Origin: Candidatus Aminicenantes bacterium
Lineage (GTDB): Bacteria > Acidobacteriota > Aminicenantia > Aminicenantales > Aminicenantaceae
Assembly (NCBI GenBank): GCA_016783445.1
Contig: JADHWO010000004.1
Coordinates: 11,212-75,211, forward strand
Direction: 5' to 3'
DNA length: 64,000 bases
In this document: in pieces, positions 2,877 to 60,515 of the stretch
How the letters are laid out: each line of letters starts with the position of its first letter
How positions within the stretch are numbered: the first letter of the stretch is position 1
Position numbers and translations under genes: made by a program
Notes under the pieces: model-generated
Databases searched by the model: none
What the model was told of the DNA's origin: nothing
The model's input: the letters and a program-made list of their open reading frames with translations, nothing else

Positions 2877-3443
2877 TTGAGAACTTTTATCGCTATCAAC
2901 CTCAGTCAGGAGATAAAAAAAACACTCTCCCACCTTATCGATGAACTTGACATGCTTGATAAAGGGAAGAAAAAAATAAGATGGATAAAACAAGAAGGCA
3001 AACATTTAACTCTTAAATTTTTGGGGGAAATCAGCCAGGAAAAAGCACTTGAAATTAAAAATGTTCTGGAAAGGATTTCAGAAAAATTCAAACCTTTTAT
3101 TCTTAAAATCAAAGGGACCGGCCGCTTCCCTCCAGGAGGAAAAAATCCAAGGGTGCTCTGGGTCGGGATCGAAGAAGAGAAAACCCTGTTTGCACTCCAA
3201 TCTCAATTGGAAGGAGAGATGGAAAAATTGGGCTTTCCAAGAGAACAGCGGAAATTTCGTCCTCATCTCACGCTTGGCAGAGTCAAAACTTTCTCCAGTC
3301 TCAGAGAAACGCTTCTTCTTATTGATAAATACAGGGAAAGAAATCTTGGAGAAATGGATGTGGAAAAAATCACTTTTATCCAGAGTGTTCTCAAACCAAC
3401 AGGAGCAGAATATTCTGTAATTTCTGAGGTCGAACTTAAATGA
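2877..3443 (+). CDS. thpR: RNA 2',3'-cyclic phosphodiesterase (2H phosphoesterase, LigT/ThpR)
   Basis: 188 aa with two H-x-T-L motifs (HLTLKF, HLTLGR); TTG start preceded by AAGAGG. Confidence 0.7.
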   Translation: MRTFIAINLSQEIKKTLSHLIDELDMLDKGKKKIRWIKQEGKHLTLKFLGEISQEKALEIKNVLERISEKFKPFILKIKGTGRFPPGGKNPRVLWVGIEEEKTLFALQSQLEGEMEKLGFPREQRKFRPHLTLGRVKTFSSLRETLLLIDKYRERNLGEMDVEKITFIQSVLKPTGAEYSVISEVELK

Positions 3444-4030
3444 AAATACTTCTAGCCCTCCTATCTTATTTTTTTGGAGCCATCCCTTCGGGATATATCT
3501 TTTTTCATTTGAGCGAAAAAAAGGACATCCGAAACTTTGGGAGCCAAACTACAGGAGCTACTAATGTTCTCCGCCTTAAAGGCTTTAAATATGCTCTTCC
3601 AGTGGGTCTGTTTGATGTTTTCAAAGGGTTCCTGCCAGTTTTTTTGGCTTTAATATTATTTCAAGATAAACTCCTTGCGCTGGCTTGCGCTTCTTTAGCT
3701 GTTTTGGGCCACTGTTTTCCTGTCTTTATTAAGTTTAAAGGAGGAAAAGGCCTGGCGACCACATTTGGTGCTTATGCTGTATTAGCTTTTAAGCCTTTTC
3801 TTCTCAGTGTGGCCATTTTTTTAATTGTTGCTGGAATAAGCCGGTATGTGTCCCTGAGCTCGCTCCTTGCTGCCCTGAGTTATCCCTTCTTTATCTTCCT
3901 TTTTAAAGAAGAAGTTGAAATCGCTTACTTAAGTTTTGCTCTTTTTTTGTTGATTATGTTTATGCATCGGGGCAATATTAAAAGGCTTATTAAAGGCAAA
4001 GAAAGAAAATTAGGAGAGAAAGCCAAATGA
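3440..4030 (+). CDS. plsY: Glycerol-3-phosphate acyltransferase PlsY
   Basis: 196 aa membrane protein; GSQTTGATNVLR matches the PlsY GSGNxGATN signature; overlaps thpR stop. Confidence 0.85.
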   Translation: MKILLALLSYFFGAIPSGYIFFHLSEKKDIRNFGSQTTGATNVLRLKGFKYALPVGLFDVFKGFLPVFLALILFQDKLLALACASLAVLGHCFPVFIKFKGGKGLATTFGAYAVLAFKPFLLSVAIFLIVAGISRYVSLSSLLAALSYPFFIFLFKEEVEIAYLSFALFLLIMFMHRGNIKRLIKGKERKLGEKAK

Positions 4031-5055
4031 AAGCAAGTGTAATTGGTGGAGGCTCTTGGGGAAGCGCTTTTGCACTTCATCTTGGCAAGCTTGATATAAA
4101 AACCCGGCTCTGGATAAGAGAAAAGGATGTTTATGAAGAAACGCTTCAGTTTAAGGAAAACAGAGCTTTTCTGCCCGGATTTGTCTTCCCTCCAACAGTT
4201 ACTTTTTTCCACAACATGGAAGAAGCCGTGGCATCTTCAGATGTCGTTTTTATTGCTGTTCCTTCTAAATTCTGCCGGCAGATTTATGAGAAGCTCGCCG
4301 CCCATCTTTCCTCCAATCATAAAATCGTCAGCCTTACAAAAGGAATTGAAGAAGGTTCTCTAAAAAGAATGAGCGAGGTCATGGAAGAAGTTTTTTCTCC
4401 TTTTTTTACCCCACATATTGCTGTGCTTTCTGGTCCAAGCTTTGCCAAGGAAGTTGTAGAAAACCATCCCACTGCAGTGGTTTTAGCCTCAAAAGAGGAA
4501 GACCTGGCTAAAAAAGCACAACATCTTATCTCATCTCCTACTTTCCGCACTTACACATCAGATGATATAGCTGGGGTAGAACTTGCAGGATCTATAAAAA
4601 ACGTCATCGCAATAGCAGCCGGAATTTCAGATGCCTTTTTATTCGGCAGTAATTCTGTTGCAGCTTTAGTAACAAGAGGGATTGCTGAAATGACAAGATT
4701 AGGGTTAAAATTAGGAGCCAAGATGGAAACTTTTGCCGGATTAGCAGGTATCGGTGACCTTGTGCTCACCTGCACAGGGAAATTAAGCCGTAACCGTTAT
4801 ATCGGTTTAGAAATGGGGAGAGGAAAAAATCTCCCTGAAATAGTCTCCGCCATTAAAATGGTAGCCGAAGGAGTAACCACGACTCTTTCTGTCCACCAAC
4901 TGGCAGAAAGGGAAAAAGTGGAGATGCCTATCTGCGAACAAATATATCAGGTGCTTTATAAAAATAAAGATCCCAGGACTGCTCTTCAAAACCTGATGGC
5001 AAGAAAATTAAAAAGTGAATATACAGCACAACAGGAGGAAATAAATGAGACCTAA
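4027..5055 (+). CDS. gpsA: NAD(P)H-dependent glycerol-3-phosphate dehydrogenase
   Basis: 342 aa; N-terminal VIGGGSWGSAFA Rossmann motif and overall GpsA architecture. Adjacent to plsY as in many bacteria. Confidence 0.9.
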   Translation: MKASVIGGGSWGSAFALHLGKLDIKTRLWIREKDVYEETLQFKENRAFLPGFVFPPTVTFFHNMEEAVASSDVVFIAVPSKFCRQIYEKLAAHLSSNHKIVSLTKGIEEGSLKRMSEVMEEVFSPFFTPHIAVLSGPSFAKEVVENHPTAVVLASKEEDLAKKAQHLISSPTFRTYTSDDIAGVELAGSIKNVIAIAAGISDAFLFGSNSVAALVTRGIAEMTRLGLKLGAKMETFAGLAGIGDLVLTCTGKLSRNRYIGLEMGRGKNLPEIVSAIKMVAEGVTTTLSVHQLAEREKVEMPICEQIYQVLYKNKDPRTALQNLMARKLKSEYTAQQEEINET

Positions 5056-20824: not shown

Positions 20825-21580
20825 TCAGATAATACCTAGCTCGCTGAACTGAGGAAATCCTGAATGAGATATCCCCCAGCAGGCGAAAAGAATAAGACTT
20901 AATAAAAAGACACCCAGGAAAAATATAAGAAAGGGATACTTCCCTCTTTCTTTTTGTCTTCGAAAATAAAGAAAAAGAGCAAGGAGAAAGCCAGCTCCTG
21001 CGGCGGGAAAAGCAAAAACAACTGACTGGCCTTCTATTGCTTCCACTGTAAAAGTAAAACCAAATAAAACTGCCCCGACTGAAAGAAGAATAATGTTTTT
21101 CCAGGAGATAGACTTGATAAAAAACTGGGAAGCTATAATGACCAAGCCTACAGAAATTAGAAAAACTCCTCCGTGCCATATAAGATGGCTGATTGTCTCA
21201 TCAAAAAGATATGTGGCCCGGTATAATTCCGAATCTTTCATGTTCTGAACAAGCCTGGCAAGAGAATTCGAAGAGAGATGGATACCATGACCACTCACAT
21301 AACAAAGAAATCCAATAGCTAAAAAGATCCGCGCCGAAATCCTTAAATTATCAAGCGAGGGCAACTGCCCTTGGATGGAATATAGAGTTTTATTGGTACG
21401 TGAATAAAAAATGTAAGCTAAAGGAATAACGGCAAAGGGAGTTATAAAATCAAGTGTATCTCCCCCAGTTAAAGGCCATTTAAGATAGCTCGTAAGGAGA
21501 GCTGGCAGGATATGAAAAAAAGCGAAGGAAAAACAGAAGGCAAAAAACCAGAAATATAGCCTATTACTATCTTCTTTCAT
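20825..21580 (-). CDS. Hypothetical integral membrane protein
   Basis: 251 aa with about 7 hydrophobic segments; convergent with pepD. Confidence 0.45.
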   Translation of the reverse strand: MKEDSNRLYFWFFAFCFSFAFFHILPALLTSYLKWPLTGGDTLDFITPFAVIPLAYIFYSRTNKTLYSIQGQLPSLDNLRISARIFLAIGFLCYVSGHGIHLSSNSLARLVQNMKDSELYRATYLFDETISHLIWHGGVFLISVGLVIIASQFFIKSISWKNIILLSVGAVLFGFTFTVEAIEGQSVVFAFPAAGAGFLLALFLYFRRQKERGKYPFLIFFLGVFLLSLILFACWGISHSGFPQFSELGII

Positions 21581-21850: not shown

Positions 21851-23305
21851 TTAAAAATGTAATCCAAAATTTATCCCAAATCCAAAACCGCCAAAACTTA
21901 CTCTTTTTTCAGGAAAATTTAGTATCATTGAACTATAAATCATATTAAATTGTTCATCATAGTCCCCAACATAATAACCGGTTAATTGAAAATCTTCGAT
22001 TTTTACAGGAATATATTTGTAATCGATATTCACTCCCACTGACCAATGCCTATTGAAAAAGTAATCATATTCTCCAAAAGCAATAAAAGTTAAGCCATTT
22101 TTTGAAAAATTGATATTATCGCCTTTCCCTCCTGAGAATCTCCATTCAGATGTTCTAAAATCTAGATTAAGATTACTTATTCCTATTCCAGCTCCTAGTT
22201 TAAAAGATGACTTCCTGAGAAAAGCATCTGGAATAGGCATCCACGCGCCTGTAATATAGTAAACACTTCCCGAATAATTTCCCAAGAGATAAAGGTCTGT
22301 GTAGTATTGTCTTCCTTCTTTATAGACTGTAACGTACTTATAACCATGAATTTCATGCTCTCCTAAAGGAAAATATCCAACACCCAAGGCAAATTTTTGG
22401 CTGATTGAATATTCAATTCTTATATTTTTAAAAAAAATAACAGGATCTTTTGCTACTTGCGGGAAATCTGTTGGTCCATATGAACCAAATGAAACAAAGA
22501 ATAGCATGAGCTCTCCACCTGGCTTTGTATCTCCAAAACCCCAATCTTTAAAATATCCTGAATAATTTTTAACTCCGTGAGAATTAAAATAACCAGGATT
22601 AAAAGTGAAATGAAAGCGGCTGAACTTACTAGATCTAGGTTTTTGATAATGTCTCTCATTAAATCTAATATGCTTTTTTTGAATTACATTTTTTTCAACA
22701 GGATTTCGAACTTTTTTCTTCATTAAAGAATTTGTCATTTTGTAACTATGAGGCAATTCTAGGGGAAACCGTGATTTAGAATTCAACTTTTTCAGAATGC
22801 TATCTACTTCTTCATTTGGCCTTCCTTCCAAAATTATCGACTCATCAATACCTTTGATAGCGCCCCAAATACCGCCAATTGGCGCTGATAAAATTGCCAA
22901 TCCTAATCCTCCTATCAAAGCCTTCTGACCGGCTGTCATACTGAACCAACCAGGCGGATCATCGCCGCTTAAAAGACCCAGCAATGCACCACTTCCTCCG
23001 CCAATCAATAATCCAGCTCCAAGACCTTTTAATAACTTTGATTTCTTCAAAATTCGGATACTTCTCAATTCATATATATCCGTTGTAATCCCAGATAAAG
23101 ATAAATCATCCATAAGAATAAGCTTGCTCCCTTTTACTGCTAGAAGTTCTGCCTTGATAATTTGGCCATCTAATGTCTGAATTAGAAGCTTAGCACCGTG
23201 TTTTTTTTCTTTAGCGTAAGAATCAGTCGCAAAAGTAATAACTGCAAAAAGTGTAATTAAAAATATTAGCTTCTTCCCCATTGATTTAAATTTTTTCTCT
23301 TTCAT
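21851..23305 (-). CDS. Outer-membrane beta-barrel protein with a glycine-zipper-rich periplasmic region (first transcription unit of the proposed regulon)
   Basis: Start placed at MKEKKFKS (GGGAGG 7 nt upstream); signal peptide ...TDSYA. Central GxxxG glycine-zipper tract; C-terminal half has alternating aromatic/hydrophobic beta-strand pattern ending ...GINFGLHF (terminal Phe typical of OMPs). The listed ORF start at 23368 overlaps the promoter motif and is unlikely. Confidence 0.6.
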   Translation of the reverse strand: MKEKKFKSMGKKLIFLITLFAVITFATDSYAKEKKHGAKLLIQTLDGQIIKAELLAVKGSKLILMDDLSLSGITTDIYELRSIRILKKSKLLKGLGAGLLIGGGSGALLGLLSGDDPPGWFSMTAGQKALIGGLGLAILSAPIGGIWGAIKGIDESIILEGRPNEEVDSILKKLNSKSRFPLELPHSYKMTNSLMKKKVRNPVEKNVIQKKHIRFNERHYQKPRSSKFSRFHFTFNPGYFNSHGVKNYSGYFKDWGFGDTKPGGELMLFFVSFGSYGPTDFPQVAKDPVIFFKNIRIEYSISQKFALGVGYFPLGEHEIHGYKYVTVYKEGRQYYTDLYLLGNYSGSVYYITGAWMPIPDAFLRKSSFKLGAGIGISNLNLDFRTSEWRFSGGKGDNINFSKNGLTFIAFGEYDYFFNRHWSVGVNIDYKYIPVKIEDFQLTGYYVGDYDEQFNMIYSSMILNFPEKRVSFGGFGFGINFGLHF

Positions 23306-23360
23306 CTCATTCCTCCCTAATCTTCTTTCTCTACATAATTTAGGCATATTGGGGAAAAGA

Positions 23361-23405
23361 GTTGTCAAAGAGATGTTAAAAGTTTGTTAAAAGTTTGTTA
23401 AAAAA
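23361..23405 (-). promoter_or_regulatory. Promoter-operator motif A: four direct half-sites (TTAACAAAC / TTAACAAAC / TTAACATCT / TTGACAACT) at 11-bp phasing; the last is a -35-like TTGACA
   Basis: Minus-strand reading TTTTTAACAAACTTTTAACAAACTTTTAACATCTCTTTGACAAC. Near-identical copies at 25776-25820 and 30358-30401, each just upstream of a minus-strand transcription unit. Confidence 0.6.
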
Positions 23406-23416: not shown

Positions 23417-23458
23417 GAAAAAAAGGGGACTGTTCCTTAAAAAATAGGAACAATCCCC
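23417..23458 (-). terminator. Rho-independent terminator after the radical SAM gene
   Basis: ggggactgttcct-taaaaaat-aggaacaatcccc hairpin followed (minus strand) by TTTTTTTCG, between the stop at 23486 and promoter motif A. Confidence 0.6.
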
Positions 23459-23485: not shown

Positions 23486-24853
23486 TTACGAACCGGTAAT
23501 TGTATACACTTTTTTCTGAGCATGGTCTCTCTGGAAAATGGATAATCTAAAGAATACTGAGGAAATAATCAAAGAACGGAATATCCGTTTCAGTATATTC
23601 CCTTTAGTTGACATTGTGGAGATAAATCTCCACCACCTTTTAACAATACTTTTCCAGGAATAGAAGTATTTATTGATTCTGCGATAGGCTTTAAAAACAT
23701 CTTCCGAAGAAACTCGTTTTGGTGTAAAGACAAGATGGTCACCTTCATAATGTGAAAGGTCTTTATCAAAAATCCTCCCTTCTGACTCTACTTCTTTATG
23801 GAATGGTGTCCCGGGAATTGGGATGGAAATAGAGGTAAGTATTGAGCTCGGGTCAATATCATCAAGCCTCTCAGGCAGACTCTCGTAATAGGAAGGAGTA
23901 TCCTCATCAAGAGCCAGCATCAAACCTGTAAATGTCAAAATCCCACGCTTCTTAAGCTTCTCAAACAGCTCCTTGTATTCCTCCACTTTGTTCTGCCTCT
24001 TATGGACTGATGAAAGGCTTGGCTCATTTAATGACTCCAATCCAATAAAAGCCATTCCGCACCGCGCCTCGACTAACAGGTCTATATATTCATCATCATG
24101 AAGGCAGTCAAAGCTGAACTGGGCTCCTAATCCCCATAGTTTCAATTTGGCGATCTCTTTTAAAAGTTCTTTGGCATAACCCATATCTCCACCGAGATTA
24201 TTGTCAAGGAGCATTGCCATTTTGCGTTTATGGAATGGAAGTTTAGAGGTAGCGGTTAAATCACGGATCACATCCTCTATCGGCCTGCAGCGGTACGGAG
24301 TAGGTTTAACCGTAAGCTGACAGAAACTGCACTTGTATTTACATCCCCTCGTAGCCTCAGTCACAACAGGAACCGCAAAATCTGACTCAATCAGGTCATA
24401 TCGTGGAGGAGGTATATTGTCTAAAGATGGAGCAAGAGGTGCCTCATAAACCTTCTTCAATTTTCCATTTACCATATCCTCAACCACCTGGGCCCAAACA
24501 GGCTCTGCCTCCCCCACAACTACTGAATCCATGTGGGGAATAACCTCTTCAGGAAAAGTGGAAGGATATTTCCCACCTGCTACGACTGTTTTCCCAAGCT
24601 TTCTAAACTTATCCGCTACTTCAAAAGCATGGGGTGCACAGTAATCCATAAAGCTGAGCCCAATAAAATCTGCATCTGTGTTGTAATCGATAGGACGAAC
24701 CATCTCATGGAGAAGATCTACATCAACTATAGGTGGAGTCAAGCCAGCTACTAGAGCACCTGCGAGGGGTGGAGCTGGAGACCTGGCAAAATAAGTCTTT
24801 TCATCTCCCAGATTTTGGAAAAGTACAATAATTTGTAATTTTGGTTTATTCAT
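23486..24853 (-). CDS. B12-binding-domain radical SAM enzyme
   Basis: 455 aa; N-terminal cobalamin-binding-like Rossmann region then CKYKCSFCQ (CxxxCxxC); 8-nt overlap with the upstream SDR gene. Confidence 0.75.
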   Translation of the reverse strand: MNKPKLQIIVLFQNLGDEKTYFARSPAPPLAGALVAGLTPPIVDVDLLHEMVRPIDYNTDADFIGLSFMDYCAPHAFEVADKFRKLGKTVVAGGKYPSTFPEEVIPHMDSVVVGEAEPVWAQVVEDMVNGKLKKVYEAPLAPSLDNIPPPRYDLIESDFAVPVVTEATRGCKYKCSFCQLTVKPTPYRCRPIEDVIRDLTATSKLPFHKRKMAMLLDNNLGGDMGYAKELLKEIAKLKLWGLGAQFSFDCLHDDEYIDLLVEARCGMAFIGLESLNEPSLSSVHKRQNKVEEYKELFEKLKKRGILTFTGLMLALDEDTPSYYESLPERLDDIDPSSILTSISIPIPGTPFHKEVESEGRIFDKDLSHYEGDHLVFTPKRVSSEDVFKAYRRINKYFYSWKSIVKRWWRFISTMSTKGNILKRIFRSLIISSVFFRLSIFQRDHAQKKVYTITGS

Positions 24854-25667
24854 TAAATTCCTCCTTTTTATTTCGTAATTTATTCGCGATTCTTTTCATA
24901 ACCCTTATAACAAGCCAGGGCAGGAAACTTCGAGACAGTGCCAGCATCTTACCTCCAAGGGAAAGAATTAACTCCTGTTTTTCTTTTTTTATGGCTCTAA
25001 CAATAGTTTTTGCAACTCTCTGGGGAGAAACATAGGGGCCAGGAGGCCGGTGTGCCCCTCCCACATTCTTCTCTTTTTCGAAAAAGCCAGTCTGAGTATA
25101 GCCTGGATAAACGTTCATTATTGAGACACCGCTCCCTGCCAGCTCGGCACGCAAACTCTGGCCAAGGGCAACAAGCGCGGCTTTACTGGCACTATAAGCA
25201 CCCAGATAAGGAACGCCGTACATGGCTGCAACAGAGGAAATATTTACAATTAGCCCGCTACCATTTTTTTTCAGAAGAGGCAGGACTCTTAGAATACAAT
25301 GAACAGCCCCAAAAAAATTGACCTCCATTACTGAGCGGAAGTCCTCTAATGCCGTCATCTCACTATACCCATAAACTCCTGTGCCAGCATTGTTGATTAA
25401 GATGTCGATGCCCCCTAACTGGTCTTCACATCTTTTAATAAGCTGGTTGACCTTCTCCCTATTTGCTACATCACAGGCAACGGCAAGGGGAGCTTGAATC
25501 CCTGGGAAAGTATCTTCTAATTCATCAGCGACCTTCCTCAGAGAGCCAAAGCTACGGGATGTTATAGCTAGTTTTGCTCCTTTATTTGCAAATTCAAAGG
25601 CAAGCGCTTTGCCGATTCCAGAAGATGCTCCTGTTATAAGCACTCTCAAATCCCTGATTTCTGACAT
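24846..25667 (-). CDS. Short-chain dehydrogenase/reductase (SDR)
   Basis: 273 aa; TGASSGIG cofactor motif, NNAG, and YxxxK (YSASK) catalytic motif. Confidence 0.85.
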   Translation of the reverse strand: MSEIRDLRVLITGASSGIGKALAFEFANKGAKLAITSRSFGSLRKVADELEDTFPGIQAPLAVACDVANREKVNQLIKRCEDQLGGIDILINNAGTGVYGYSEMTALEDFRSVMEVNFFGAVHCILRVLPLLKKNGSGLIVNISSVAAMYGVPYLGAYSASKAALVALGQSLRAELAGSGVSIMNVYPGYTQTGFFEKEKNVGGAHRPPGPYVSPQRVAKTIVRAIKKEKQELILSLGGKMLALSRSFLPWLVIRVMKRIANKLRNKKEEFNE

Positions 25668-25775
25668 TTTTTATCCTAGTGACCGAAGTTTTGTAAAATG
25701 GAGACTGTCTCCATTTTTCGCAATTTTTTAATTTATTTATCCTCTTTCTATAATGTAACTCTCCCCTGAGATAAA

Positions 25776-25820
25776 GTTGTCAAAGAGATGTTAAGAGTTT
25801 GTTAAAAGTTTGTTAAAAAA
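25776..25820 (-). promoter_or_regulatory. Promoter-operator motif B (same 4 x 11-bp direct-repeat array ending in TTGACA)
   Basis: Minus strand TTTTTAACAAACTTTTAACAAACTCTTAACATCTCTTTGACAAC, about 110 nt upstream of the SDR start codon. Confidence 0.6.
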
Positions 25821-25842: not shown

Positions 25843-25889
25843 GGAAAAAGGGGGCAGGCTACTTTTTTTTAAAAAAGTAGCCTATCCCC
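25843..25889 (-). terminator. Rho-independent terminator closing the five-gene unit
   Basis: gggggcaggctac-(AT loop)-gtagcctatcccc hairpin with T-runs on both strands, immediately downstream of the stop of 25906..26334. Confidence 0.55.
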
Positions 25890-26376: not shown

Positions 26377-27216
26377 TTATTCGCCTGTTTGCATTTTTTT
26401 CTTCTTTTCACGTCTTTTTCTTATCGTACTGCTTCCAATCTTCTCCAGGAGCGGCAAAAGCAAGAAGTAAAACTTGGGAAAAGCCATTCCAATCCGGCAG
26501 AAAACTCCCATTCCGGACGGAACCAGTATTTCCGCCTTATTCTTACGCACTGCTTTGATTATTCCTTTAGCAACCTTTTCAGGTTTTAAGGGTTCCCCTA
26601 TAAAGGAAAGCACAGCCTCGTCATATAAAAGTTCATAATCAAGCTGTGGAGTATCTACAGAATCAGGACAAACTACAGCTATTCCCACGGGAGATTTACG
26701 CAATTCAGCATATAGCGAAAAAGAATAGCCTCGAATGGCGAATTTAGTAGCGCTATAGATAGCTTCACCCGGCATCGGAACAATACCTCCCAATGAGGCA
26801 ACATTGACAATTTTACCAGAATTCTGCTCTTTCATAAGAGGCAAAACTGCCCGGCATCCATTAATAGTTCCTAAAAAGTTTACTGAAACCTGATGATGGA
26901 CTTTCTCTAAGGCAATTTTTTCAGTTGCTCCTGGGTGAATAACGCCTGCATTGTTAACAAGAATATCAATTTTGCCGTACTTTTGCCTGACATTCTCTAT
27001 AAGCGACTGCCAGGATTCAGGGTTTGTGACATCATGTTCAATAACCATGGTCTCTGTTCCCAGATCCTTCAAGGCCACACTTAATTCTTCTAATTCTTTC
27101 TTTCGAATATCTGTCAGGACTAAAACAGCACCTTGTTTGGCAAAAATATGTGCTGTAGCTGAGCCTATACCACCAGCTGCACCGGTAATGATTGTTACTT
27201 TTTCCTTAAGCATCAA
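26377..27216 (-). CDS. Short-chain dehydrogenase/reductase (SDR)
   Basis: 279 aa; TGAAGGIG, NNAG and YSATK motifs. Confidence 0.85.
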   Translation of the reverse strand: MMLKEKVTIITGAAGGIGSATAHIFAKQGAVLVLTDIRKKELEELSVALKDLGTETMVIEHDVTNPESWQSLIENVRQKYGKIDILVNNAGVIHPGATEKIALEKVHHQVSVNFLGTINGCRAVLPLMKEQNSGKIVNVASLGGIVPMPGEAIYSATKFAIRGYSFSLYAELRKSPVGIAVVCPDSVDTPQLDYELLYDEAVLSFIGEPLKPEKVAKGIIKAVRKNKAEILVPSGMGVFCRIGMAFPKFYFLLLPLLEKIGSSTIRKRREKKKKMQTGE

Positions 27217-27252: not shown

Positions 27253-28299
27253 CTACCAAATTCCAGCTTCTAGTGCAATGTGAAGTAATTCTGTTATATA
27301 GCCTTGAGGATCAGAACCAGCCGTCTCAGACAAGTTTCTAATCAATGTAGTATTAAGAGGGATTAGCTGTTCTTGAGTCTTGATGCTTACTCCTTCTCCG
27401 CTGGCCACCTCACCAATTAAGATAGGCATCCAACCGTTTAGGGCGGCCCTTTGAAGAAATTTTTTTTCATTCTGAGGGCTTATGGTAAAACAAAGCTCAA
27501 ATTCTCCATGAACCGCTGCCAGAGCCAACCACGGCGGAAGATTTTGAGCTCTGCACACCTGTTGTACAACCGGATGCAAGATACGCTCCCAATCATTATT
27601 AAGAATGAATTTGTTATGATTCAGCCGCATAAGTGTATCTAAAGTATGTAAAAGACCATCACTTGTATCCATGCAACAACTGGCAAATTCCCTGACTATT
27701 ATTCCCTCTGCGATTCTTGCGGCTGGTTTGTAGAAAAACTCCAGCATTTTATAATCCTGCCCGGACAGCCGCAAAAAAGCAAAAATGCTTCCCAGGCCTC
27801 CTGGACCGGAAAGGTATAACTTATCCTTTGGTTTTGCTCCTATTCTGGTAATGGCTGATTTTTTTGGAACAAGTCCAACAGCACACCCGGAAAGAAATAA
27901 TTCTTTTCCCTGGTTAGTATCTCCACCAAGAACAAATGTATTCAGCCGCTTGCAGGCATCAGAAATTCCCTCTGTCAGTCTCGCCATAAATGCCTCATCC
28001 TGAGTTGAGGGGAAGCTAATTGACACGAGCAGTCCCAGGGGTTCAGCTCCAACCGCAGCCAGATCTGAAAAATTAACCATAGCCAGCATCCAGCCAATAA
28101 GATATGGATCATCATATAAGCCAGTGGATACCTCTTCCACCAAAGCATCCGTTGTTATTGCTAGATATTTTTCACTTTCCTTTCCAAAATCTATCAACTC
28201 TGCATCTGCTTCGTGAATCTCATTTTTTTTATGTGGAGCTTTGAGATAATTTTTAGTTATCTTCTCGATTTTTAAGTTTTCTAAAATATCTTTTTTCAT
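27253..28299 (-). CDS. ThiL-like PurM-superfamily ATP-dependent enzyme (AIR-synthase-related kinase)
   Basis: 348 aa; segment DDPYLIGWMLAMVNFSDLAAVGAEPLGLLVSISFP matches the ThiL/PurM N-domain signature (AVNLSDLAAMGA...). The genomic context is not thiamine biosynthesis. Confidence 0.65.
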   Translation of the reverse strand: MKKDILENLKIEKITKNYLKAPHKKNEIHEADAELIDFGKESEKYLAITTDALVEEVSTGLYDDPYLIGWMLAMVNFSDLAAVGAEPLGLLVSISFPSTQDEAFMARLTEGISDACKRLNTFVLGGDTNQGKELFLSGCAVGLVPKKSAITRIGAKPKDKLYLSGPGGLGSIFAFLRLSGQDYKMLEFFYKPAARIAEGIIVREFASCCMDTSDGLLHTLDTLMRLNHNKFILNNDWERILHPVVQQVCRAQNLPPWLALAAVHGEFELCFTISPQNEKKFLQRAALNGWMPILIGEVASGEGVSIKTQEQLIPLNTTLIRNLSETAGSDPQGYITELLHIALEAGIW

Positions 28300-29225
28300 T
28301 GGCTTACTTTTAAGATTCCCTGCAGTAATTTGATCTTAATGTCACGAGCAAGGCATACTTCTCCATCAAGCTCCAGCGGTGTAAGAGAAACCGGGTAAAT
28401 ATCAATTCTATCCGTCTTCCAGCTCCTCGTTTTTGGCAGTCCTGAAAATTTAGATCGTGCAAGAGAGAAAATCGTCCTTAATCTGGCCAGGACTCCCATC
28501 TTCTCACAAAGAGCAACACCAAAAAAATCGCTTTGAGGAGAAATATTAAAATCGTAACAGAGATTCCCGCTGATATGAGGATTAATAACAACGCTCAAAC
28601 TGGAAACATCCGTTGAATAGCGTTTATTCCCAATTTTGATCTCTGTTGGAATATTCTTAGCTGAGAATAATGTCTTTAATGCAGAATACCAGATGGTTCC
28701 CTCAACCCACTTGGATTTCATCAATTTTATGATTTTCTCTTTTGAATTGAACAGAAAATTGGCTTGAGCTATAACTCCAATACTGCAATTTATGATGAAA
28801 TACCTTCTCTGCCATTTTCCATTTTCATCCTCAAAATCAACCTGCCCAACATTATGCTGAACAGCATTTTTATAATCCAATTTTAACGGCACTTTACCAT
28901 TATTGTTATTATTTTCAGAGGAAGACTTGTGAAAATCATTGCTCGAACCCAAACCAATAGCTCCCATAATTACTTTCCTGCGTTCCACCTTTCTCATATT
29001 CATTATTTGATTGAGTAAAAAATTAATCGTCCCATCCCCTCCAGCCGACACTAATAATCTTTCTCCTCTGCCATACTCCTGACGCAGGCTCTTGTGGAAT
29101 TCTTCTAAATCAGAAATGAGGATATAATTATTTTTGATATACTTTTTTTCCAGCTCAGGTCTGTACTTTTCCCATTTTTGAAACCCTTTGCCATTATTGG
29201 AATATTTGTTTAATAAAATAAGCAT
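28296..29225 (-). CDS. DAGK_cat-domain lipid kinase (YegS/BmrU/sphingosine-kinase-like)
   Basis: 309 aa; LLVSAGGDGTINF matches the diacylglycerol-kinase catalytic-domain GGDGT motif; overlaps the neighbouring genes. Confidence 0.7.
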   Translation of the reverse strand: MLILLNKYSNNGKGFQKWEKYRPELEKKYIKNNYILISDLEEFHKSLRQEYGRGERLLVSAGGDGTINFLLNQIMNMRKVERRKVIMGAIGLGSSNDFHKSSSENNNNNGKVPLKLDYKNAVQHNVGQVDFEDENGKWQRRYFIINCSIGVIAQANFLFNSKEKIIKLMKSKWVEGTIWYSALKTLFSAKNIPTEIKIGNKRYSTDVSSLSVVINPHISGNLCYDFNISPQSDFFGVALCEKMGVLARLRTIFSLARSKFSGLPKTRSWKTDRIDIYPVSLTPLELDGEVCLARDIKIKLLQGILKVSQ

Positions 29226-29229
29226 TGTC

Positions 29230-30285
29230 TCACACCTGCCTTTTTTCTGGTCTAAGTTTTAAAGTCAGTTCAAAGAATAAATAAAAGGCCACAATAAAAA
29301 CCAGCCAATTTATCTTCAGAGTTACAGTTATCGCTGCACAGTAAAGAATAAAAGAACGAACCACATTAGCTATCGCACCGTGAGCTTTGTTTTCATCCCT
29401 GGTTTGATGGATCTTGATCTGGGCATAAAGGTTTACAGCTACTGCTATAAAAAATATGGAAATTCCAAGTATGTTTTGCTCTCTGAACAAAATCAGTACC
29501 CAGCCGGTAAGCACAGCGGCTAAGAGAGCAATAACATCGCTGTATACAGCAGCTGCCTTCCAGCCAAAAACTACAGGAAAAGTCTTATAACCGGTCTTTC
29601 TATCAGCTGAAATATCTTTGAAATAACCCATCACAACAAAATTAGCATAACCGAAAAAAATCGCTAACACTGCTAAAAGGAAGGCCAAAGAATGTAAGTC
29701 TCCCAGCCGAATGATTTCCTTGACTGAATAATCTCTATCTACAAATCTCCCCATAACTGGCAGCAAAGCAACTATCCATGAATTCCAGAATGGCCCACCC
29801 CACCAGGTTCTTTTTAACGGAGTGTAAGTGAGCAAACCTATAACTGCAATAACACCAAAGACTAAAATTACAGGATTTAAATAAACCATGATTAAAATCG
29901 CCAGTGTTAATCCAGCAAGGCTGACACTTAAAACCTGCCAGCGGGAAATTATACCTTTTATCAAGGGACGATATGGGGAGGAGAGAGCATCTGTATCCAT
30001 TTGAAAACAATCTGTAAGAGCCTGTCCTAATCCGTAGGATAAGAACAGAGGGATAAAAGCAAGTGCAATTCTTACATCTCCCAGCTCTTTTATAAAAACA
30101 AGCCCTACCAATCCAGCACTTCCAGAGACAAAAAAAAGATATGGTCTCATTGTTGACCAAAAAGCCTTCCAAAAAGTTAAACTTAAGATATCCGCATACC
30201 GATAATTGGGCATGAAACATCCCCTCAGGAGATTTAATAAAATGAGCCCGGTACTTATTTTTATATTTTTACTTACTGCTAACAT
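29230..30285 (-). CDS. UbiA-family aromatic/polyprenyl prenyltransferase (integral membrane)
   Basis: About 8-9 TM helices. Asp-rich motifs TDCFQMDTD (NDxxDxxxD-like) and YFKDISADRKTG (DxxxD) fit the UbiA superfamily. True start may be the internal MPNYRY (30213). Confidence 0.7.
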   Translation of the reverse strand: MLAVSKNIKISTGLILLNLLRGCFMPNYRYADILSLTFWKAFWSTMRPYLFFVSGSAGLVGLVFIKELGDVRIALAFIPLFLSYGLGQALTDCFQMDTDALSSPYRPLIKGIISRWQVLSVSLAGLTLAILIMVYLNPVILVFGVIAVIGLLTYTPLKRTWWGGPFWNSWIVALLPVMGRFVDRDYSVKEIIRLGDLHSLAFLLAVLAIFFGYANFVVMGYFKDISADRKTGYKTFPVVFGWKAAAVYSDVIALLAAVLTGWVLILFREQNILGISIFFIAVAVNLYAQIKIHQTRDENKAHGAIANVVRSFILYCAAITVTLKINWLVFIVAFYLFFELTLKLRPEKRQV

Positions 30286-30357
30286 TATGCCTCCTGGAGT
30301 TTATTAATCTTCAATTTCTCCATTTCTATAAATAATCTAACTTCCCCTGGATCTAAA

Positions 30358-30401
30358 GTTGTCAAAAAGATGTTAAGAGTTTGTTAAAAGTTTGTTAAAA
30401 A
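30358..30401 (-). promoter_or_regulatory. Promoter-operator motif C (same direct-repeat array), upstream of the UbiA-led unit and directly downstream of the response-regulator gene
   Basis: Minus strand TTTTTAACAAACTTTTAACAAACTCTTAACATCTTTTTGACAAC. Confidence 0.6.
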
Positions 30402-30584: not shown

Positions 30585-31268
30585 TTATTTTTGAAATTTA
30601 TAACCGGACCAGGGTATAGTGATAAGATGTGAAGGTTTGGCTGGATTTCCCTCTATTTTTTGCCTTAAATGGTGGATAAAAGTATCAATCGTCCTTGTTG
30701 TGGGGAATTTATCGTAACCCCAGACTTCATTAAGAATTGTCTCCCGGCTTACAACTTCTCCCTCATGGGAAACGAGGAGCTTAAGAAGGCCATACTCTTT
30801 GGCTGTAAGGTAAATGTCTTTTTTTCCTTTTGAGGCGATTTGTTTTTTAAAATTAATGTAAACATTCCCAAAAGAATACTCCTCAACTTCTGGCGCTTCA
30901 GGTTTAGAGCGGCGGAGCACAGCTCTAATCCTGGCAAGAAGTTCTTTTGTCCCAAAAGGTTTTGTGATGTAATCATCCGCTCCAAACTCAAGCCCTAAAA
31001 CTTTATCAATTTCTTCTTTCTTCTCCCCTGTCAGCATGATAATAGGCGTTTTAATTTTTTTTGTCCGCAACCTCTTACAAACTTCCAGTCCATTTAAAGA
31101 AGGGAGTAAAAAATCGAGTATTATCAAATCAACTGTTTCCTGGCTTGCCAGCTGAAATCCCTTCTCTCCATCAGCAGCCGTGATAACTTTAAAACCTTCT
31201 ATTTCCATATAAACTTTTAATGTTTCAAGTAAAACTTTATCATCGTCGATAATTAATATTTTTTTCAT
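30585..31268 (-). CDS. OmpR/PhoB-family response regulator (receiver plus winged-helix DNA-binding domain)
   Basis: 227 aa; receiver with DD...D...K pattern (IIDDD, ILDFLLP, T...K); C-terminal wHTH (LTAKEYGLLKLL..., TIDTFIHHLRQKIE). Confidence 0.9.
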   Translation of the reverse strand: MKKILIIDDDKVLLETLKVYMEIEGFKVITAADGEKGFQLASQETVDLIILDFLLPSLNGLEVCKRLRTKKIKTPIIMLTGEKKEEIDKVLGLEFGADDYITKPFGTKELLARIRAVLRRSKPEAPEVEEYSFGNVYINFKKQIASKGKKDIYLTAKEYGLLKLLVSHEGEVVSRETILNEVWGYDKFPTTRTIDTFIHHLRQKIEGNPAKPSHLITIPWSGYKFQK

Positions 31269-33643
31269 GGCTTTGGAAAAATCAGAATAAAAGTGCTGCC
31301 TTTATTGGCTTGACTTTCAACTTTGACCTCCCCCTTATGAGCTTCCATAATGTGTTTGACAATTTTTAATCCCAGGCCTACTCCTTTTGGATTGTGTTGG
31401 CTCGCCTCAGCATGCCGGTAAAACTCCTCGAATATCCTCTTTATATCTCTGGAAGGAATGCCAATCCCCTTATCTTTAACATGAATCTCCGCCAGTTTTT
31501 CTCTCTCGATAAGCTGGATCACGATTTCTCTCTTATCTGACGAATATTTAATAGCATTATCAATAAGATTAGTCAAAGCCTGCTTAACAGCATCCTGGTC
31601 TATCTCTAAAAAAATAGGACCCTCCGCTAAATCAACAGTGAAAACAAATCCATCTGATTCTAACTTTTGTAAAAACAGTTGTGCTACTTCTATAATGATA
31701 GACTGTATTTTAACTTTTTGAAAATTATAAGTTTTTACTTGTTGTTCAATTTTTCCAAAATCAAGGATATTGTGCAGGAATCGGGAAAGTCGGCTGCTTT
31801 CGCTGGCCACAAGGTTTATGAGCTCATCCTGCTTTGTTTTCTCCTTTATCTTCCCTCCCTGAAGAATTTCCGCCAGACCTTGGATGGAACTCATGGGAGT
31901 TCGAAGCTCGTGGGATACAGATGAAATAAACTCAGTTTTAAGGCGGTTAAGCTCATTCAATTTTTCTCTTTCCACTCTTTCATAAATCACTTCTTCCTGA
32001 AGCCTGATCCTTTCAAGGTTTAAAGCCAGTTCCCTGGCCATGGTAAGTAAAAGCTCTATGTCATCCCGGCTGAATTTCTCCCCTGATTTTTTCTTTCCCA
32101 GAGACAATAATCCAGCAAGGTCAGATGACTTAAAAGACAGAGGAAAAATTAACTCAATTTTTTTCTCTTCAAGTTCTTCCTCCAGTGAAAAATCCATATG
32201 TTCTTCCGTACGAACAGCCCTTTTCCTGGCAATTATATTATCTGAATCCATACAAAGAGAAACCAAAAAGTTGAGGTTTTTTTCGCCATTTTTTCCAATT
32301 AAAAGCTTAGGCTTTCCGGACCTCACAGAAAATATGTAGACTCCGATATGTTCTAGAGGCAAGGTGTTTTTCATCTTTTGTAAGAAAAATTCTACAAGCT
32401 GGCCGCGGTTTACCATCTCATAAGCTCTCTCACTGAAACTGAGGATGCTTTTTTTATAGTCAAAACTCATCCGGAAAAATGCCTTATCAACTATCTCTTG
32501 GATTTTCTTCCTCGCAGGATGAAAAACTACTGCAGCCGCAAGAGCCCCAATAACAGATACAGCTGTTTTATTGACAGAAAAGAAATTTGAAAAGATATTT
32601 TGAAAAAGAGCAACGGAAAAGAGATAAATACTGACAGTGAACACAGTTAGTAAAAAATAGACCAAGCTTCGGTTGATGACCAGTTCGACTTCCATCAGTT
32701 TAAACTTCACAATGGAAAAAGCGAACGCAAGAGGTATAAAAATAAAAAACAACAGGGAAAATTCCTCTGTCATCAGAGGTTTATTTCTTATTACCTGGGG
32801 TAATTCATATAAAAGAATAAACGGTCCCAAACCGACAAAAAGACCGTAAAAGATCCATTTTATCTGGGCTCGTTCTTCCTCCATGGCAACTTTTCGATAG
32901 CTGAAAATAAGGAAAAAAACTGCTAAAAGGACAAAGAAAATTAGGTAACAACGAAGAGCATAAAGAACGATTTGGTAGTACTTGTTTATTTCGATCGAAG
33001 ATTTTAAGCTTGACAAGAGAAATAACACCTCAAGAACCCCAGCAAAAATTAGAGCCGGACAGTAAATAAAAAACCTGCTTATCTTGAGTTTTTTCTTTGA
33101 GAAAAAAAGAGAAAAACGAAGTAGAAGAGCAGGTGCCAGAGGATAGAGAATATAGAACAAGATCCCCGGAGCATAAGAGAGCCAGTCTTTCCGCAAACAG
33201 AAAAATCCGCTGTTTATGATAAGGGAAGAAAAGAGTGCCAAAGAAGCCCAATAATAGATGCGAGCCCTTGAATCTTCGGCACGCAGGAAAAAAACTAAAA
33301 TTGCTACGGCAAGGCAGAAGAGAGCTATAAGGAAATAAATTAAGGGATAAGCAGCCTGGGGCCCAGAGTAATATGGAATGATTTGACCCTCTCTTTTTTT
33401 TATTGTGTCATTAACTTTGATATGGAAGGTTACCTGTTCTCCGATTGTTTTCCGGCTAAGCATAAATTCACGGTCTAATTTCCCTTCGGTTTTTACGCCG
33501 TCTATTTGCTCAACAAAACCATAGTCTACTCCCGTAGGAAGAGGAAGGCCGGGGCGCTGACGGAGCAAAAAGAATCCGTAAATACTTATAAGAAAAATGA
33601 CAAAGCCCACAAACAAATAAAAGAAAAACAGGGCTTTTTTCAT
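31265..33643 (-). CDS. Multi-TM sensor histidine kinase (short periplasmic loop, about 7 TM helices, cytoplasmic linker/GAF-like region, HisKA plus HATPase_c)
   Basis: 792 aa; H-box SHELRTPMSSI, N-box NLIDNAIKYS, G-boxes DKGIGIP and GVGLGL; 4-nt overlap with the response-regulator gene. Confidence 0.9.
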   Translation of the reverse strand: MKKALFFFYLFVGFVIFLISIYGFFLLRQRPGLPLPTGVDYGFVEQIDGVKTEGKLDREFMLSRKTIGEQVTFHIKVNDTIKKREGQIIPYYSGPQAAYPLIYFLIALFCLAVAILVFFLRAEDSRARIYYWASLALFSSLIINSGFFCLRKDWLSYAPGILFYILYPLAPALLLRFSLFFSKKKLKISRFFIYCPALIFAGVLEVLFLLSSLKSSIEINKYYQIVLYALRCYLIFFVLLAVFFLIFSYRKVAMEEERAQIKWIFYGLFVGLGPFILLYELPQVIRNKPLMTEEFSLLFFIFIPLAFAFSIVKFKLMEVELVINRSLVYFLLTVFTVSIYLFSVALFQNIFSNFFSVNKTAVSVIGALAAAVVFHPARKKIQEIVDKAFFRMSFDYKKSILSFSERAYEMVNRGQLVEFFLQKMKNTLPLEHIGVYIFSVRSGKPKLLIGKNGEKNLNFLVSLCMDSDNIIARKRAVRTEEHMDFSLEEELEEKKIELIFPLSFKSSDLAGLLSLGKKKSGEKFSRDDIELLLTMARELALNLERIRLQEEVIYERVEREKLNELNRLKTEFISSVSHELRTPMSSIQGLAEILQGGKIKEKTKQDELINLVASESSRLSRFLHNILDFGKIEQQVKTYNFQKVKIQSIIIEVAQLFLQKLESDGFVFTVDLAEGPIFLEIDQDAVKQALTNLIDNAIKYSSDKREIVIQLIEREKLAEIHVKDKGIGIPSRDIKRIFEEFYRHAEASQHNPKGVGLGLKIVKHIMEAHKGEVKVESQANKGSTFILIFPKP

Positions 33644-59387: not shown

Positions 59388-60515
59388 ATGAAAATTGAGA
59401 TTTTTGAACTGGAAAGGACTCAATCTCAATGGGAAAACAGAGTAAAATACAACCTCACGGAAAGCGGTATTCATCCCTACTCTCTCAATGAAATTCTCGA
59501 CAAGGAAGAAATAAAAGATCTGATTTCCCTGCGGCTTGGCTACGGTCAAACAAATGGCTCTATAGAGCTGAGAGAAGCAATCAGCCGCCTCTATCCGGGA
59601 ACAGACCTGGATAATGTTCTCGTGACAAACGGCTCTGCAGAAGCAAACTTTATAACCATCTGGACTAATCTTGAGCCAGGCGATGAGCTTATTTTAATGC
59701 TCCCGAATTACATGCAAATCTGGGGAATTGCCCGTTCTTTTGGCGTTACAGTCAAACCTTTTTATCTCAGAGAAGACCTAAACTGGGGACCAGACCTTGA
59801 CGAACTGAAAAGCTTGATATCACCCCGGACAAAAATGATAGCCGTCTGTAATCCCAATAATCCTACAGGTGCTGTTCTCAGCAAGGAAGAAATGAAGGAA
59901 ATTGTTCACATCGCCATGGAAGCCGGTGCTTGGATCTATTCTGATGAAGTATACTGCGGTGCTGAATTAAATGGAGAAGAAACACCTTCTTTTTTTGGCC
60001 TCTATGATAAAGTGATTGTATGCCATGGACTCTCAAAAGCCTATGCTCTTCCTGGTCTCAGGTTGGGCTGGCTAGTCGGGCCAAAAGAAACTATCGAAAA
60101 AAGCTGGGCTTCACACGACTATACATCTATTGCTTCAGGAATTCTCAGCAATCATGTGGCAGCTTTGGTGCTTCAGCCTGATAGGAGAAAAAAAGTTTTA
60201 AATCGTAACAGAAAAATTCTGAAAAAAAATTTAGTAGAACTTGAAAAATGGATCGATAAACACAAAACTCTCTTTAACCTGATCCCTCCCAAAGCAGGAG
60301 GCATAGCTTTTCCGCGATACAGTTTGGAAATCAATTCCACAGAACTCGCCACTAAACTCATGAAAGAAAAAAGTGTCTTTATCGTGGCTGGGGACTTGTT
60401 CGGAATGGACCACTATTTGCGTATTGGGATTGGCTCGGAAAAGAATTATTTTTTAGCTGGTTTAAGCTTGTTTGACGAGACATTACAGGAAATCAGCGGA
60501 AATTCTTCTGTCTAA
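59388..60515 (+). CDS. Class I/II PLP-dependent aminotransferase
   Basis: 375 aa; fold-type I aminotransferase layout with SKAY (Schiff-base Lys) and conserved N/D/Y/R positions; good SD (AAGGAGAGG). Confidence 0.7.
   Translation: MKIEIFELERTQSQWENRVKYNLTESGIHPYSLNEILDKEEIKDLISLRLGYGQTNGSIELREAISRLYPGTDLDNVLVTNGSAEANFITIWTNLEPGDELILMLPNYMQIWGIARSFGVTVKPFYLREDLNWGPDLDELKSLISPRTKMIAVCNPNNPTGAVLSKEEMKEIVHIAMEAGAWIYSDEVYCGAELNGEETPSFFGLYDKVIVCHGLSKAYALPGLRLGWLVGPKETIEKSWASHDYTSIASGILSNHVAALVLQPDRRKKVLNRNRKILKKNLVELEKWIDKHKTLFNLIPPKAGGIAFPRYSLEINSTELATKLMKEKSVFIVAGDLFGMDHYLRIGIGSEKNYFLAGLSLFDETLQEISGNSSV

Follow-up and report, generated by a model that had tools for sequence, protein, structure and literature searches.

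A conserved UbiA, DAGK_cat and ThiL-like gene trio at a probable envelope-lipid locus of a Candidatus Aminicenantes bacterium

The 64,000-nucleotide stretch of DNA analyzed here, referred to below as the window, comes from a Candidatus Aminicenantes bacterium (GenBank assembly GCA_016783445.1, contig JADHWO010000004.1, positions 11,212 to 75,211 of the forward strand). Its closest relatives likewise place the host in Aminicenantes. Its minus strand carries three adjoining genes for a prenyltransferase, a lipid kinase and a relative of the thiamine-monophosphate kinase ThiL. This trio, at 30285..27253, had been singled out in an earlier note made from the sequence, and all coordinates match minus-strand open reading frames (ORFs), with the three family assignments each above the Pfam cut-off:

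30285..29230, minus strand: UbiA-superfamily prenyltransferase, 351 amino acids, PF01040
29225..28296, minus strand: DAGK_cat lipid kinase, 309 amino acids, PF00781
28299..27253, minus strand: ThiL-like PurM-superfamily (AIRS) protein, 348 amino acids, PF00586

The tight coupling described in the earlier note is visible at the junctions, where the TGA stop of the UbiA gene is followed after 4 nt by the ATG of the DAGK_cat gene and the start of the ThiL-like gene overlaps the DAGK_cat stop as ATGA. An AGGAGG ribosome-binding site lies 6 nt ahead of the UbiA ATG. The GGDGT motif reported for the lipid kinase is present as SAGGDGT, and so is the ThiL-type motif reported for the AIRS protein, NFSDLAAVGAEP. 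It was also correct that the context is neither thiamine nor quinone synthesis: Pfam scans of ~46 window ORFs contained no thiamine, ubiquinone or menaquinone genes, and no thiamine pyrophosphate (TPP) riboswitch was matched by Rfam in the 64-kb window or in 7 related loci.

The three genes travel together across a wide range of bacteria. A motif-pattern scan with an alignment of ThiL-like proteins over 185,579 genomes, one per species, returned 107 loci, of which 80 were kept; with the window and the loci from two organisms whose names are not those of metagenome-assembled genomes (MAGs), this gave 84 loci with a ThiL-like gene. All three genes are present in 73 of the 84, 8 of the 11 exceptions end at a contig edge, and the trio is complete in 73 of the 76 informative loci, distributed over about ten phyla. 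The carriers belong to Aminicenantes, Ignavibacteriota, Gemmatimonadota, Myxococcota, Cloacimonadota, Calditrichota, Bacteroidota (Saprospiraceae, Chitinophagaceae, Flavobacterium), Holophagales, Vicinamibacteria and Thermoanaerobaculaceae. The UbiA and DAGK genes are adjacent in 70 loci irrespective of gene order, as would be expected if the product of the kinase were the substrate of the transferase, and in 60 loci the ThiL-like gene directly follows the DAGK gene, often with an overlap between the two. The identities of the trio proteins to the window copies co-vary (r 0.93–0.95), and the trio stands by itself in several Acidobacteriota, Gemmatimonadota and Myxococcota loci. This co-location is far beyond chance. 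Among the matches listed, the only named non-MAG sources are Flavobacterium maritimum and Flavitalea antarctica, accompanied by one Flavobacterium sp. MAG.

A few loci depart from this arrangement. One (L030) keeps the UbiA gene and has no intact DAGK. In CP070750.1 (L021/L001, 9000–13750) and in L005 (10001–14430) the ThiL-like gene is accompanied by genes for a membrane protein, a short-chain dehydrogenase/reductase (SDR) and a radical S-adenosylmethionine (radical-SAM) enzyme, with only short ORFs upstream and no UbiA or DAGK gene within 10 kb; either the genome has the two genes at another site, or the cluster is in decay here. Two database proteins resemble fusions, one (P0172) of a DAGK C-terminus with a ThiL-like domain and the other (P0179) of a ThiL-like domain with an alpha-oxoamine synthase; either could be a real Rosetta-stone fusion, or an artefact of a frameshift or of assembly, the contigs being short.

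A related Aminicenantes contig (L088, 1–17059) is syntenic with window positions 18035–33643, and the identities of its proteins to their window counterparts are as follows:

Histidine kinase: 66%
Response regulator: 77%
First SDR (SDR1): 76%
Membrane protein: 72%
M20 peptidase: 72%
Galactokinase: 67%
UbiA protein: 52%
DAGK protein: 35%
ThiL-like protein: 43%

Overall, the flanking genes of this contig are 57–77% identical to those of the window and the trio 35–52%. The accessory set is also a different one, with an oxoamine synthase, a START-like protein, a hexapeptide acyltransferase and a COQ7-like protein, and without the second SDR (SDR2) and the radical-SAM enzyme. A diverged trio amid conserved flanks, with another accessory set, suggests that the trio behaves as an exchangeable cassette at one site.

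The ThiL-like protein has its nearest relatives in ThiL but carries an altered signature. It scores 92.7 bits against PF00586 (cut-off 24) and 171.6 bits against the ThiL model TIGR01379, compared with 59 for SelD, 32 for PurM and 30 for HypE, and its best sequence match in the PDB is ThiL of A. baumannii (111 bits). The structure prediction that had been proposed as a check gave an AlphaFold2 model with a pLDDT (predicted local distance difference test) of 91.4, for which the top 19 Foldseek matches are all ThiL structures, followed by SelD, HypE and PurM. The protein nevertheless stays under the TIGR01379 equivalog cut-off of 184.15 bits, against 398 bits for E. coli ThiL. Eight of nine scanned relatives score 137–174 bits, with P0270 borderline at 186.5. 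Residues D51, D79, D127, D211 and D214 are invariant, and the Asp/Ser motifs TTD, SDLAA, GGDTN and DTSDG are conserved; since the metal- and ATP-binding aspartates are kept, kinase chemistry is probably retained.

The differences from ThiL lie in three motifs. The canonical D-x-L-x-x-G-x-H-F is replaced by an invariant D-x-x-x-E-E-x-x-x-G-L-Y, GG(D/E)DYEL by x-x-HGE(F/Y)EL with a 2-residue insertion, and (L/V/I)SDG by TSDG. The lost histidine is the equivalent of His54 of P. aeruginosa ThiL, which hydrogen-bonds thiamine monophosphate (TMP) (PMC13254938). All 5 canonical ThiLs used in the motif comparison carry the canonical motifs, compared with 0 of the 150 best representative clusters of the ThiL-like family. 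The family is small, with 216 clusters (50% identity) at E ≤ 1e-30 against 4841 at E ≤ 1e-10, and a rough neighbor-joining tree parts it from the five canonical ThiLs with weak bootstrap values of 0.56 and 0.66. The earlier note had reasoned that the protein would be simply housekeeping if it fell among genuine ThiLs; it lies outside them by its score under the equivalog cut-off, its family-specific motifs and its insertion. With E. coli ThiL as the tblastn query, all 86 loci and the window gave no match other than the ThiL-like genes. A second PurM-like match in one locus (L054), considered as a canonical thiL on the same contig, is HypE with the C-terminal PRIC.

Many family members, including those of Flavobacterium maritimum and Flavitalea antarctica, are labeled thiamine-monophosphate kinase by the JGI and NCBI pipelines although they fall under the TIGR01379 cut-off, which is probably a systematic mis-annotation. 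In a sub-clade of representative clusters (P0256, P0261, P0263) the GGDT metal-binding motif has been lost (e.g., FFDISFF, LSEFQNL) while the rest of the protein is kept, and these may be inactive or repurposed paralogues. The most distant relatives, P0270 and P0389, lie between a genuine geranylgeranylglyceryl phosphate (GGGP) synthase and hisC (L087, 137–9504), next to a geranylgeranyl diphosphate synthase, two geranylgeranyl reductases with ferredoxin and a UbiA protein resembling digeranylgeranylglyceryl phosphate synthase (DGGGPS), with no DAGK. This is a lipid neighborhood of archaeal type, and we take the linkage as probably a coincidental one of a housekeeping gene. The clade just reaches the ThiL cut-off; we read it as ordinary, probably archaeal, ThiL and do not count it as evidence for the family.

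The UbiA protein scores 97.6 bits against PF01040 (cut-off 34.2) and has at least 7 hydrophobic segments by hydropathy, i.e., the topology of a polytopic membrane protein. Its nearest NCBIfam models are archaeal prenyltransferase/DGGGPS and ChlG, all far under cut-off (77 bits against 269 for DGGGPS and 53 against 313 for chlorophyll synthase), and its nearest PDB entries are chlorophyll synthase (E 7e-7) and DGGGPS (E 4e-6). The earlier note had named grouping with UbiA, MenA or CyoE of known function as the finding that would count against a new role. Matches to the UbiA and MenA equivalogs are negligible (ubiA_proteo 25 bits against 275, MenA 23 against 264; overall 22–25 bits against cut-offs of 264–275), and no heme O synthase (CyoE) model occurs among the 20 NCBIfam matches listed at E ≤ 0.01. 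The second aspartate-rich motif is intact as KDISAD (KDxxAD in the family), and the motifs are invariant in 62–65 orthologues. The first motif is TDCFQMDTD (TDCFQxDTD in every orthologue, n = 62) where NDxxDxxxD is canonical, with three aspartates kept, the asparagine replaced by threonine and the central aspartate by glutamine. In a Cloacimonadota locus (L027, 5893–7470) a second UbiA-domain protein, of 526 amino acids, is encoded downstream of the trio, with an N-terminal extension of ~280 residues that contains no recognizable domain.

The DAGK_cat protein is a soluble or peripheral lipid kinase. It scores 47.3 bits against PF00781 (cut-off 23.6) and carries SAGGDGT (residues 60–66), GSSNDF and a C-terminal ELDGE; GGDG, GSSNDF and DGE are conserved in 67 orthologues. 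The cut-off of the YegS/Rv2252/BmrU subfamily model TIGR00147 is not reached (61.7 bits against 118.65), and the nearest PDB match is DgkB (E 3e-4). Bacterial DAGK_cat-type enzymes phosphorylate ceramide in the case of CpgB (PMC9393093, PMC12275187) and dihydrosphingosine in the case of PG1348 (PMC9045371).

The span 27253–30285 given in the earlier note is too narrow, and the remaining operon genes and the regulator had been overlooked. The unit runs downstream to 23486, through an SDR, a membrane protein, another SDR and a B12-binding radical-SAM enzyme. By a shared regulatory element it reaches a 505-residue ORF at 23368..21851, and upstream it extends to a response regulator/histidine kinase pair at 30585..33643. 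The other features of the locus are:

27216..26377, minus strand: SDR1, 279 amino acids, adh_short 179 bits
26334..25906, minus strand: small membrane protein, 142 amino acids, three hydrophobic segments, DUF8058-like in relatives
25667..24846, minus strand: SDR2, 273 amino acids, adh_short 184.6 bits
24853..23486, minus strand: B12-binding radical-SAM enzyme, 455 amino acids (Radical_SAM, B12-binding, DUF4070)
23368..21851, minus strand: ORF of 505 amino acids without a Pfam family, N-terminal hydrophobic segments
21580..20825, minus strand: conserved neighbor of 251 amino acids without a Pfam match, homologues after the cluster in 8 loci
30585..31268, minus strand: OmpR/PhoB-type response regulator, 227 amino acids, Response_reg and Trans_reg_C in Pfam
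31265..33643, minus strand: sensor histidine kinase, 792 amino acids, HisKA and HATPase_c in Pfam
30350..30398, minus strand: regulatory element, copy 1, upstream of the UbiA gene
25770..25816, minus strand: regulatory element, copy 2, upstream of SDR2
23360..23401, minus strand: regulatory element, copy 3, upstream of the 505-residue ORF
25855..25884, minus strand: terminator-like hairpin after the membrane-protein gene, 13-bp stem and T-rich tail, a consensus match only
23425..23458, minus strand: strong intrinsic-terminator-like hairpin after the radical-SAM gene, 13-bp stem with 7 GC pairs and a T7 tail

The SDR2 and radical-SAM genes overlap by 8 bp, and the response regulator and histidine kinase genes by 4 bp. 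The regulatory element, of ~50 nt, consists of three 11-bp direct repeats, TTAACAAACTT, followed by TTGACAAC. It is found exactly three times in the 64 kb, on the same strand each time and each time before a transcription unit of the cluster; its motif has six overlapping matches in the window against 0.02 expected, and L088 and 15 further Aminicenantes loci carry it at homologous positions. The adjacent OmpR-type regulator probably has its operator in this element, and we infer three co-regulated transcription units under that response regulator. The histidine kinase has ~10 N-terminal hydrophobic segments in a hydropathy scan and adjoins the cluster in 20 loci, in Aminicenantes and, in opposite orientation, in Ignavibacteriota/Bacteroidota; the response regulator is co-located in 24 loci. 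The 505-residue ORF is linked to the cluster only through the shared upstream element. It has glycine-rich hydrophobic segments and a C-terminal ...FGLHF resembling that of an outer-membrane barrel; among the other loci fetched it has a homologue only in L041, and its position is taken by an Omp85-like protein in other Aminicenantes loci.

Elsewhere, the window contains an ordinary bacterial plsY–gpsA pair (3440..5055), two large tricorn-type protease paralogues with PD40 repeats, PDZ_Tricorn and Peptidase_S41 (37065–40331 and 45065–48346), two ornithine cyclodeaminase/mu-crystallin paralogues (40447–41439 and 58384–59343) and hydantoinase/oxoprolinase A and B genes (50790–54390). The proteases, cyclodeaminases and hydantoinase/oxoprolinase fit a lifestyle of degrading peptides and amino acids.

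The genes around the trio place it in a lipid context. Neighboring ORFs of all loci were clustered and the representatives scanned by profile. An alpha-oxoamine synthase is present in 39 loci, scoring in NCBIfam 371 bits against 640 for serine palmitoyltransferase (Spt) and 369 against 426 for BioF. Other recurrent neighbors are SDR and 3-beta-hydroxysteroid-dehydrogenase-type reductases, GNAT-like or hexapeptide acyltransferases, a fatty-acid hydroxylase or desaturase, a COQ7-like protein, a BtaA-like DUF3419 protein, phosphatidylserine decarboxylase, MMPL and MacB/FtsX transporters and Omp85-like proteins; a polyprenyl-diphosphate synthase is not recurrent among these clustered neighborhoods. 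In Flavobacterium maritimum and Flavitalea antarctica the operon comprises, in this order, genes for the ThiL-like protein, oxoamine synthase, DUF3419 protein, GNAT-like protein, MMPL or desaturase, DAGK and UbiA. The most conserved protein of the cluster is the B12 radical-SAM enzyme, with 57–85% identity across phyla in 38–42 loci. It has the CxxxCxxC core as GCKYKCSFC and scores 51.7 bits against PF04055, above cut-off, 25.7 against PF02310, below its cut-off of 32.1, and 22.1 against DUF4070; it reaches no NCBIfam equivalog (HpnJ 64 bits against 578), its similarity being weak and limited to HpnJ, BchE and PhpK. SDR1 orthologues, 58–79% identical, hold the same position in Aminicenantes loci. 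The small membrane protein, present in 25 loci, has no Pfam match in the window and orthologues with weak PF26247 matches. A window protein with Aminotran_1_2 (59388..60515) was considered as a hidden oxoamine synthase and is unrelated.

Taken together, the locus is probably a two-component-regulated one that makes or remodels a membrane lipid, probably a lipid of the envelope. That it encodes a lipid pathway, and that the ThiL-like protein is not a housekeeping thiamine kinase, we put at a probability of roughly 0.85 on the comparative data. The non-thiamine, lipid-linked role suggested for this enzyme in the earlier note is thus strengthened, by the synteny in about ten phyla, the lipid neighbors, the sub-threshold score and the altered motif. 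Chances are about even, by analogy with the chemistry of its family, that the enzyme keeps the reaction of ThiL and would transfer the gamma-phosphate of ATP to a lipid phosphomonoester, giving a lipid diphosphate. A committed order of DAGK_cat, UbiA and ThiL-like enzymes acting on a lipid alcohol is proposed tentatively. The DAGK_cat enzyme would phosphorylate the alcohol, which in most lineages may be a sphingoid-like amino alcohol from the co-located alpha-oxoamine synthase, reductase and N-acyltransferase; the UbiA enzyme would prenylate the lipid phosphate, as DGGGPS does with GGGP; the ThiL-like enzyme would convert the phosphomonoester head to a diphosphate; and the radical-SAM enzyme and SDRs would tailor the chain. 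This order is slightly preferred because UbiA–DAGK is the only pair that is always adjacent, because known bacterial DAGK_cat enzymes take ceramide or dihydrosphingosine, and because DGGGPS, the nearest relative of the UbiA protein, prenylates a lipid phosphate. As oxoamine synthase, N-acyltransferases, reductases and hydroxylases accompany the trio in most other lineages, a sphingoid-like amino lipid is at least as likely a substrate as a prenol, which the earlier note had favored along with a prenylated head group. On the boldest reading, which we regard as possible rather than probable, the ThiL-like protein would act on a lipid phosphomonoester, either a prenyl phosphate or a phosphate of the sphingoid/ceramide type, as the first kinase of the PurM superfamily to do so. 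The trio would then stand for a class of envelope lipids not yet described, (amino)lipids that are prenylated and bear a diphosphate, made under two-component control by members of some ten mostly uncultured phyla and passed between lineages as a cassette.

Several observations weigh against this interpretation. The complete genome CP070750 and L005, both with ample flanks, have the ThiL-like gene without adjoining UbiA and DAGK genes. The alpha-oxoamine synthase is absent among the window ORFs scanned, which leaves the proposed acceptor undefined in the window, and the departure of the first UbiA motif from NDxxDxxxD means that the donor chemistry may be unusual. We know of no biological role for a sphingoid or ceramide diphosphate. 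The phylogeny suggested in the earlier note does separate the family from the five canonical ThiLs, but the bootstrap for family monophyly (0.56) is weak, which makes the tree indicative only. Members of the family are 26–34% identical to E. coli ThiL, a distance similar to the one between canonical ThiLs from different phyla. The separation of the family therefore rests on motifs, model scores and context.

A different order of the same two phosphorylations is, chemically, equally coherent. In prenol salvage, the DAGK_cat enzyme would phosphorylate an isoprenoid alcohol (farnesol, geranylgeraniol, phytol or a modified prenol), the ThiL-like enzyme would make the prenyl diphosphate, and the UbiA enzyme would transfer this donor onto an acceptor from the variable accessory genes. 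To our knowledge, every UbiA-family enzyme consumes a diphosphate substrate, and the chemistry of ThiL turns a monophosphate into just such a diphosphate. The trio also looks like a self-contained cassette, both in the Acidobacteriota, Gemmatimonadota and Myxococcota loci where it stands alone and in the Aminicenantes where it is swapped as a block (57–77% identity in the flanks against 35–52% in the trio); its DAGK and ThiL-like genes overlap or are fused, and polyprenyl-diphosphate synthase is not recurrent in the neighborhoods. On the other hand, prenol salvage is without precedent in the DAGK_cat family: we know of no DAGK_cat enzyme that phosphorylates prenols, the known bacterial members using diacylglycerol, ceramide and sphingoid bases. 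Bacteria already have prenyl diphosphates from de novo synthesis. The always-adjacent pair is UbiA–DAGK and not one of the sequential pairs (DAGK–ThiL-like or ThiL-like–UbiA), and in Bacteroidota the ThiL-like gene sits beside the oxoamine synthase, several genes away from DAGK–UbiA. We consider this order doubtful, though a serious competitor to the preferred one, in which the lipid phosphate is prenylated before the ThiL-like step.

The position of the oxoamine synthase gene, directly after the ThiL-like gene in Ignavibacteriota, Saprospiraceae, Flavobacterium and Flavitalea loci, would also suit an activation of the PurM/PurL/HypE kind, where ATP acts on a carbonyl or amide oxygen of an intermediate derived from the oxoamine synthase, for example in cyclodehydration or dehydration of an N-acyl-alpha-aminoketone, or on a soluble head-group precursor, in a variant independent of DAGK_cat. 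The PurM superfamily is chemically versatile, one database protein joins a ThiL-like domain to an oxoamine synthase, and the substrate-side motifs are unlike those of ThiL and include the new invariant Glu-Glu pair. This activation is unlikely, given the much higher score to ThiL (171.6 bits) than to SelD (59), PurM (32) or HypE (30), a structural ranking in the same sense, and the lack of an oxoamine synthase beside the ThiL-like gene in the window and similar Aminicenantes loci. Very improbable is a housekeeping thiamine-monophosphate kinase, that is, a lineage-specific, divergent ThiL found in a lipid operon by coincidence. ThiL is indeed the nearest family by sequence and fold, the score is merely 12.5 bits under the curated cut-off, many members are publicly annotated as thiamine-monophosphate kinase, and no second thiL was seen in the ~20 kb read per genome. 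These points are outweighed by score, motifs, context and distribution: the synteny with UbiA and DAGK in 73 of 76 informative loci, the loss of the TMP-contacting histidine motif and, in some members, of the GGDT metal motif, the lack of any thiamine gene among the window ORFs and selected neighbors scanned and of a TPP riboswitch in the window and 7 loci, and a rare, patchy occurrence (107 loci in 185,579 species genomes) in which Flavobacterium maritimum and Flavitalea antarctica are the only named non-MAG sources listed. Both PurM-type activation and a genuine ThiL role are less likely than the two kinase orders.

If the ThiL-like protein does act on lipids, ThiL, so far a single-function enzyme of vitamin B1 synthesis, would gain a second biochemical role, and hundreds of public thiamine-monophosphate kinase entries would be flagged as probably mis-annotated. 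The trio would then belong to an unknown membrane-lipid pathway common to Aminicenantes, Ignavibacteriota, Bacteroidota, Gemmatimonadota, Myxococcota and several Acidobacteriota classes. Sediments and soils are rich in these groups, whose lipids serve as biomarkers but are poorly assigned. The locus also bears on the role of DGGGPS-like prenyltransferases in bacteria of the Fibrobacteres–Chlorobi–Bacteroidetes group and on which genes provide lipid or prenyl diphosphates other than by de novo synthesis. Flavobacterium maritimum and Flavitalea antarctica have isolate-style names; if they are cultured, genetics and lipidomics can address the question directly.

It is important to see how the trio compares with known systems. 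With ThiL (TIGR01379; PDB 3C9T, 5CC8, 8YKU) the ThiL-like protein shares the two-domain PurM-superfamily fold (Foldseek E 1e-26, TM-score 0.7–0.8) and the metal- and ATP-binding motifs, and ThiL is its best sequence match (24–29% identity). It differs in its score under the cut-off and in EE..G-L-Y, HGE[FY]EL with its 2-residue insertion and TSDG, and its gene travels with UbiA and DAGK lipid genes, with no thiamine genes or TPP riboswitch in the loci read. The UbiA protein has its best NCBIfam and PDB matches in DGGGPS and chlorophyll synthase (PDB 6M31, 9SAU), enzymes of a type that prenylates oxygen atoms. It is polytopic like them and conserves the second aspartate-rich motif and the YRP loop; it differs by scores far under the cut-offs and by TDxxQxDxD in place of NDxxDxxxD. 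An archaeal-type ether-lipid pathway was considered and set aside, as no GGGP synthase (GGGPS) or glycerol-1-phosphate dehydrogenase gene occurs among the window ORFs scanned and the plsY–gpsA pair is present; pigment genes, the partners of chlorophyll synthase, do not occur among those ORFs either. The DAGK_cat protein shares the GGDGT, NDF and DGE signature of YegS/BmrU/DgkB (TIGR00147, PDB 2QV7) at the sub-threshold score given above.

At the level of pathways, the enzyme kinds of related trio loci resemble those of bacterial sphingolipid synthesis (Spt, bCerS, CerR and CpgB in Caulobacter, PG1348 in Porphyromonas), with alpha-oxoamine synthase, N-acyltransferase, reductases, hydroxylases and a DAGK_cat-type kinase in common. 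The oxoamine synthase of trio loci falls under every Spt cut-off (371 against 640 bits), the window has no such synthase, and we know of no described sphingolipid pathway with a UbiA or ThiL-like enzyme. Caulobacter CpgABC was rejected as a homologous counterpart: its one family in common with the trio is DAGK_cat, represented by CpgB, CpgA is PgsA-like and CpgC has no conserved domain (PMC9393093). The phytol salvage of plants and cyanobacteria proceeds from the phytol kinase VTE5 to the phytyl-phosphate kinase VTE6 and on to VTE2 or chlorophyll synthase. It has the same logic as the trio, an alcohol kinase, a monophosphate kinase and a UbiA-family transferase. The likeness is one of analogy, not membership, since the kinases of the two belong to unrelated protein families. 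A search of the literature on the trio combination, on a ThiL paralogue in lipid metabolism and on bacterial prenol kinases returned nothing relevant. The component families are known, and in the papers searched the gene combination, the ThiL-derived subfamily and the UbiA subfamily had not previously been described.

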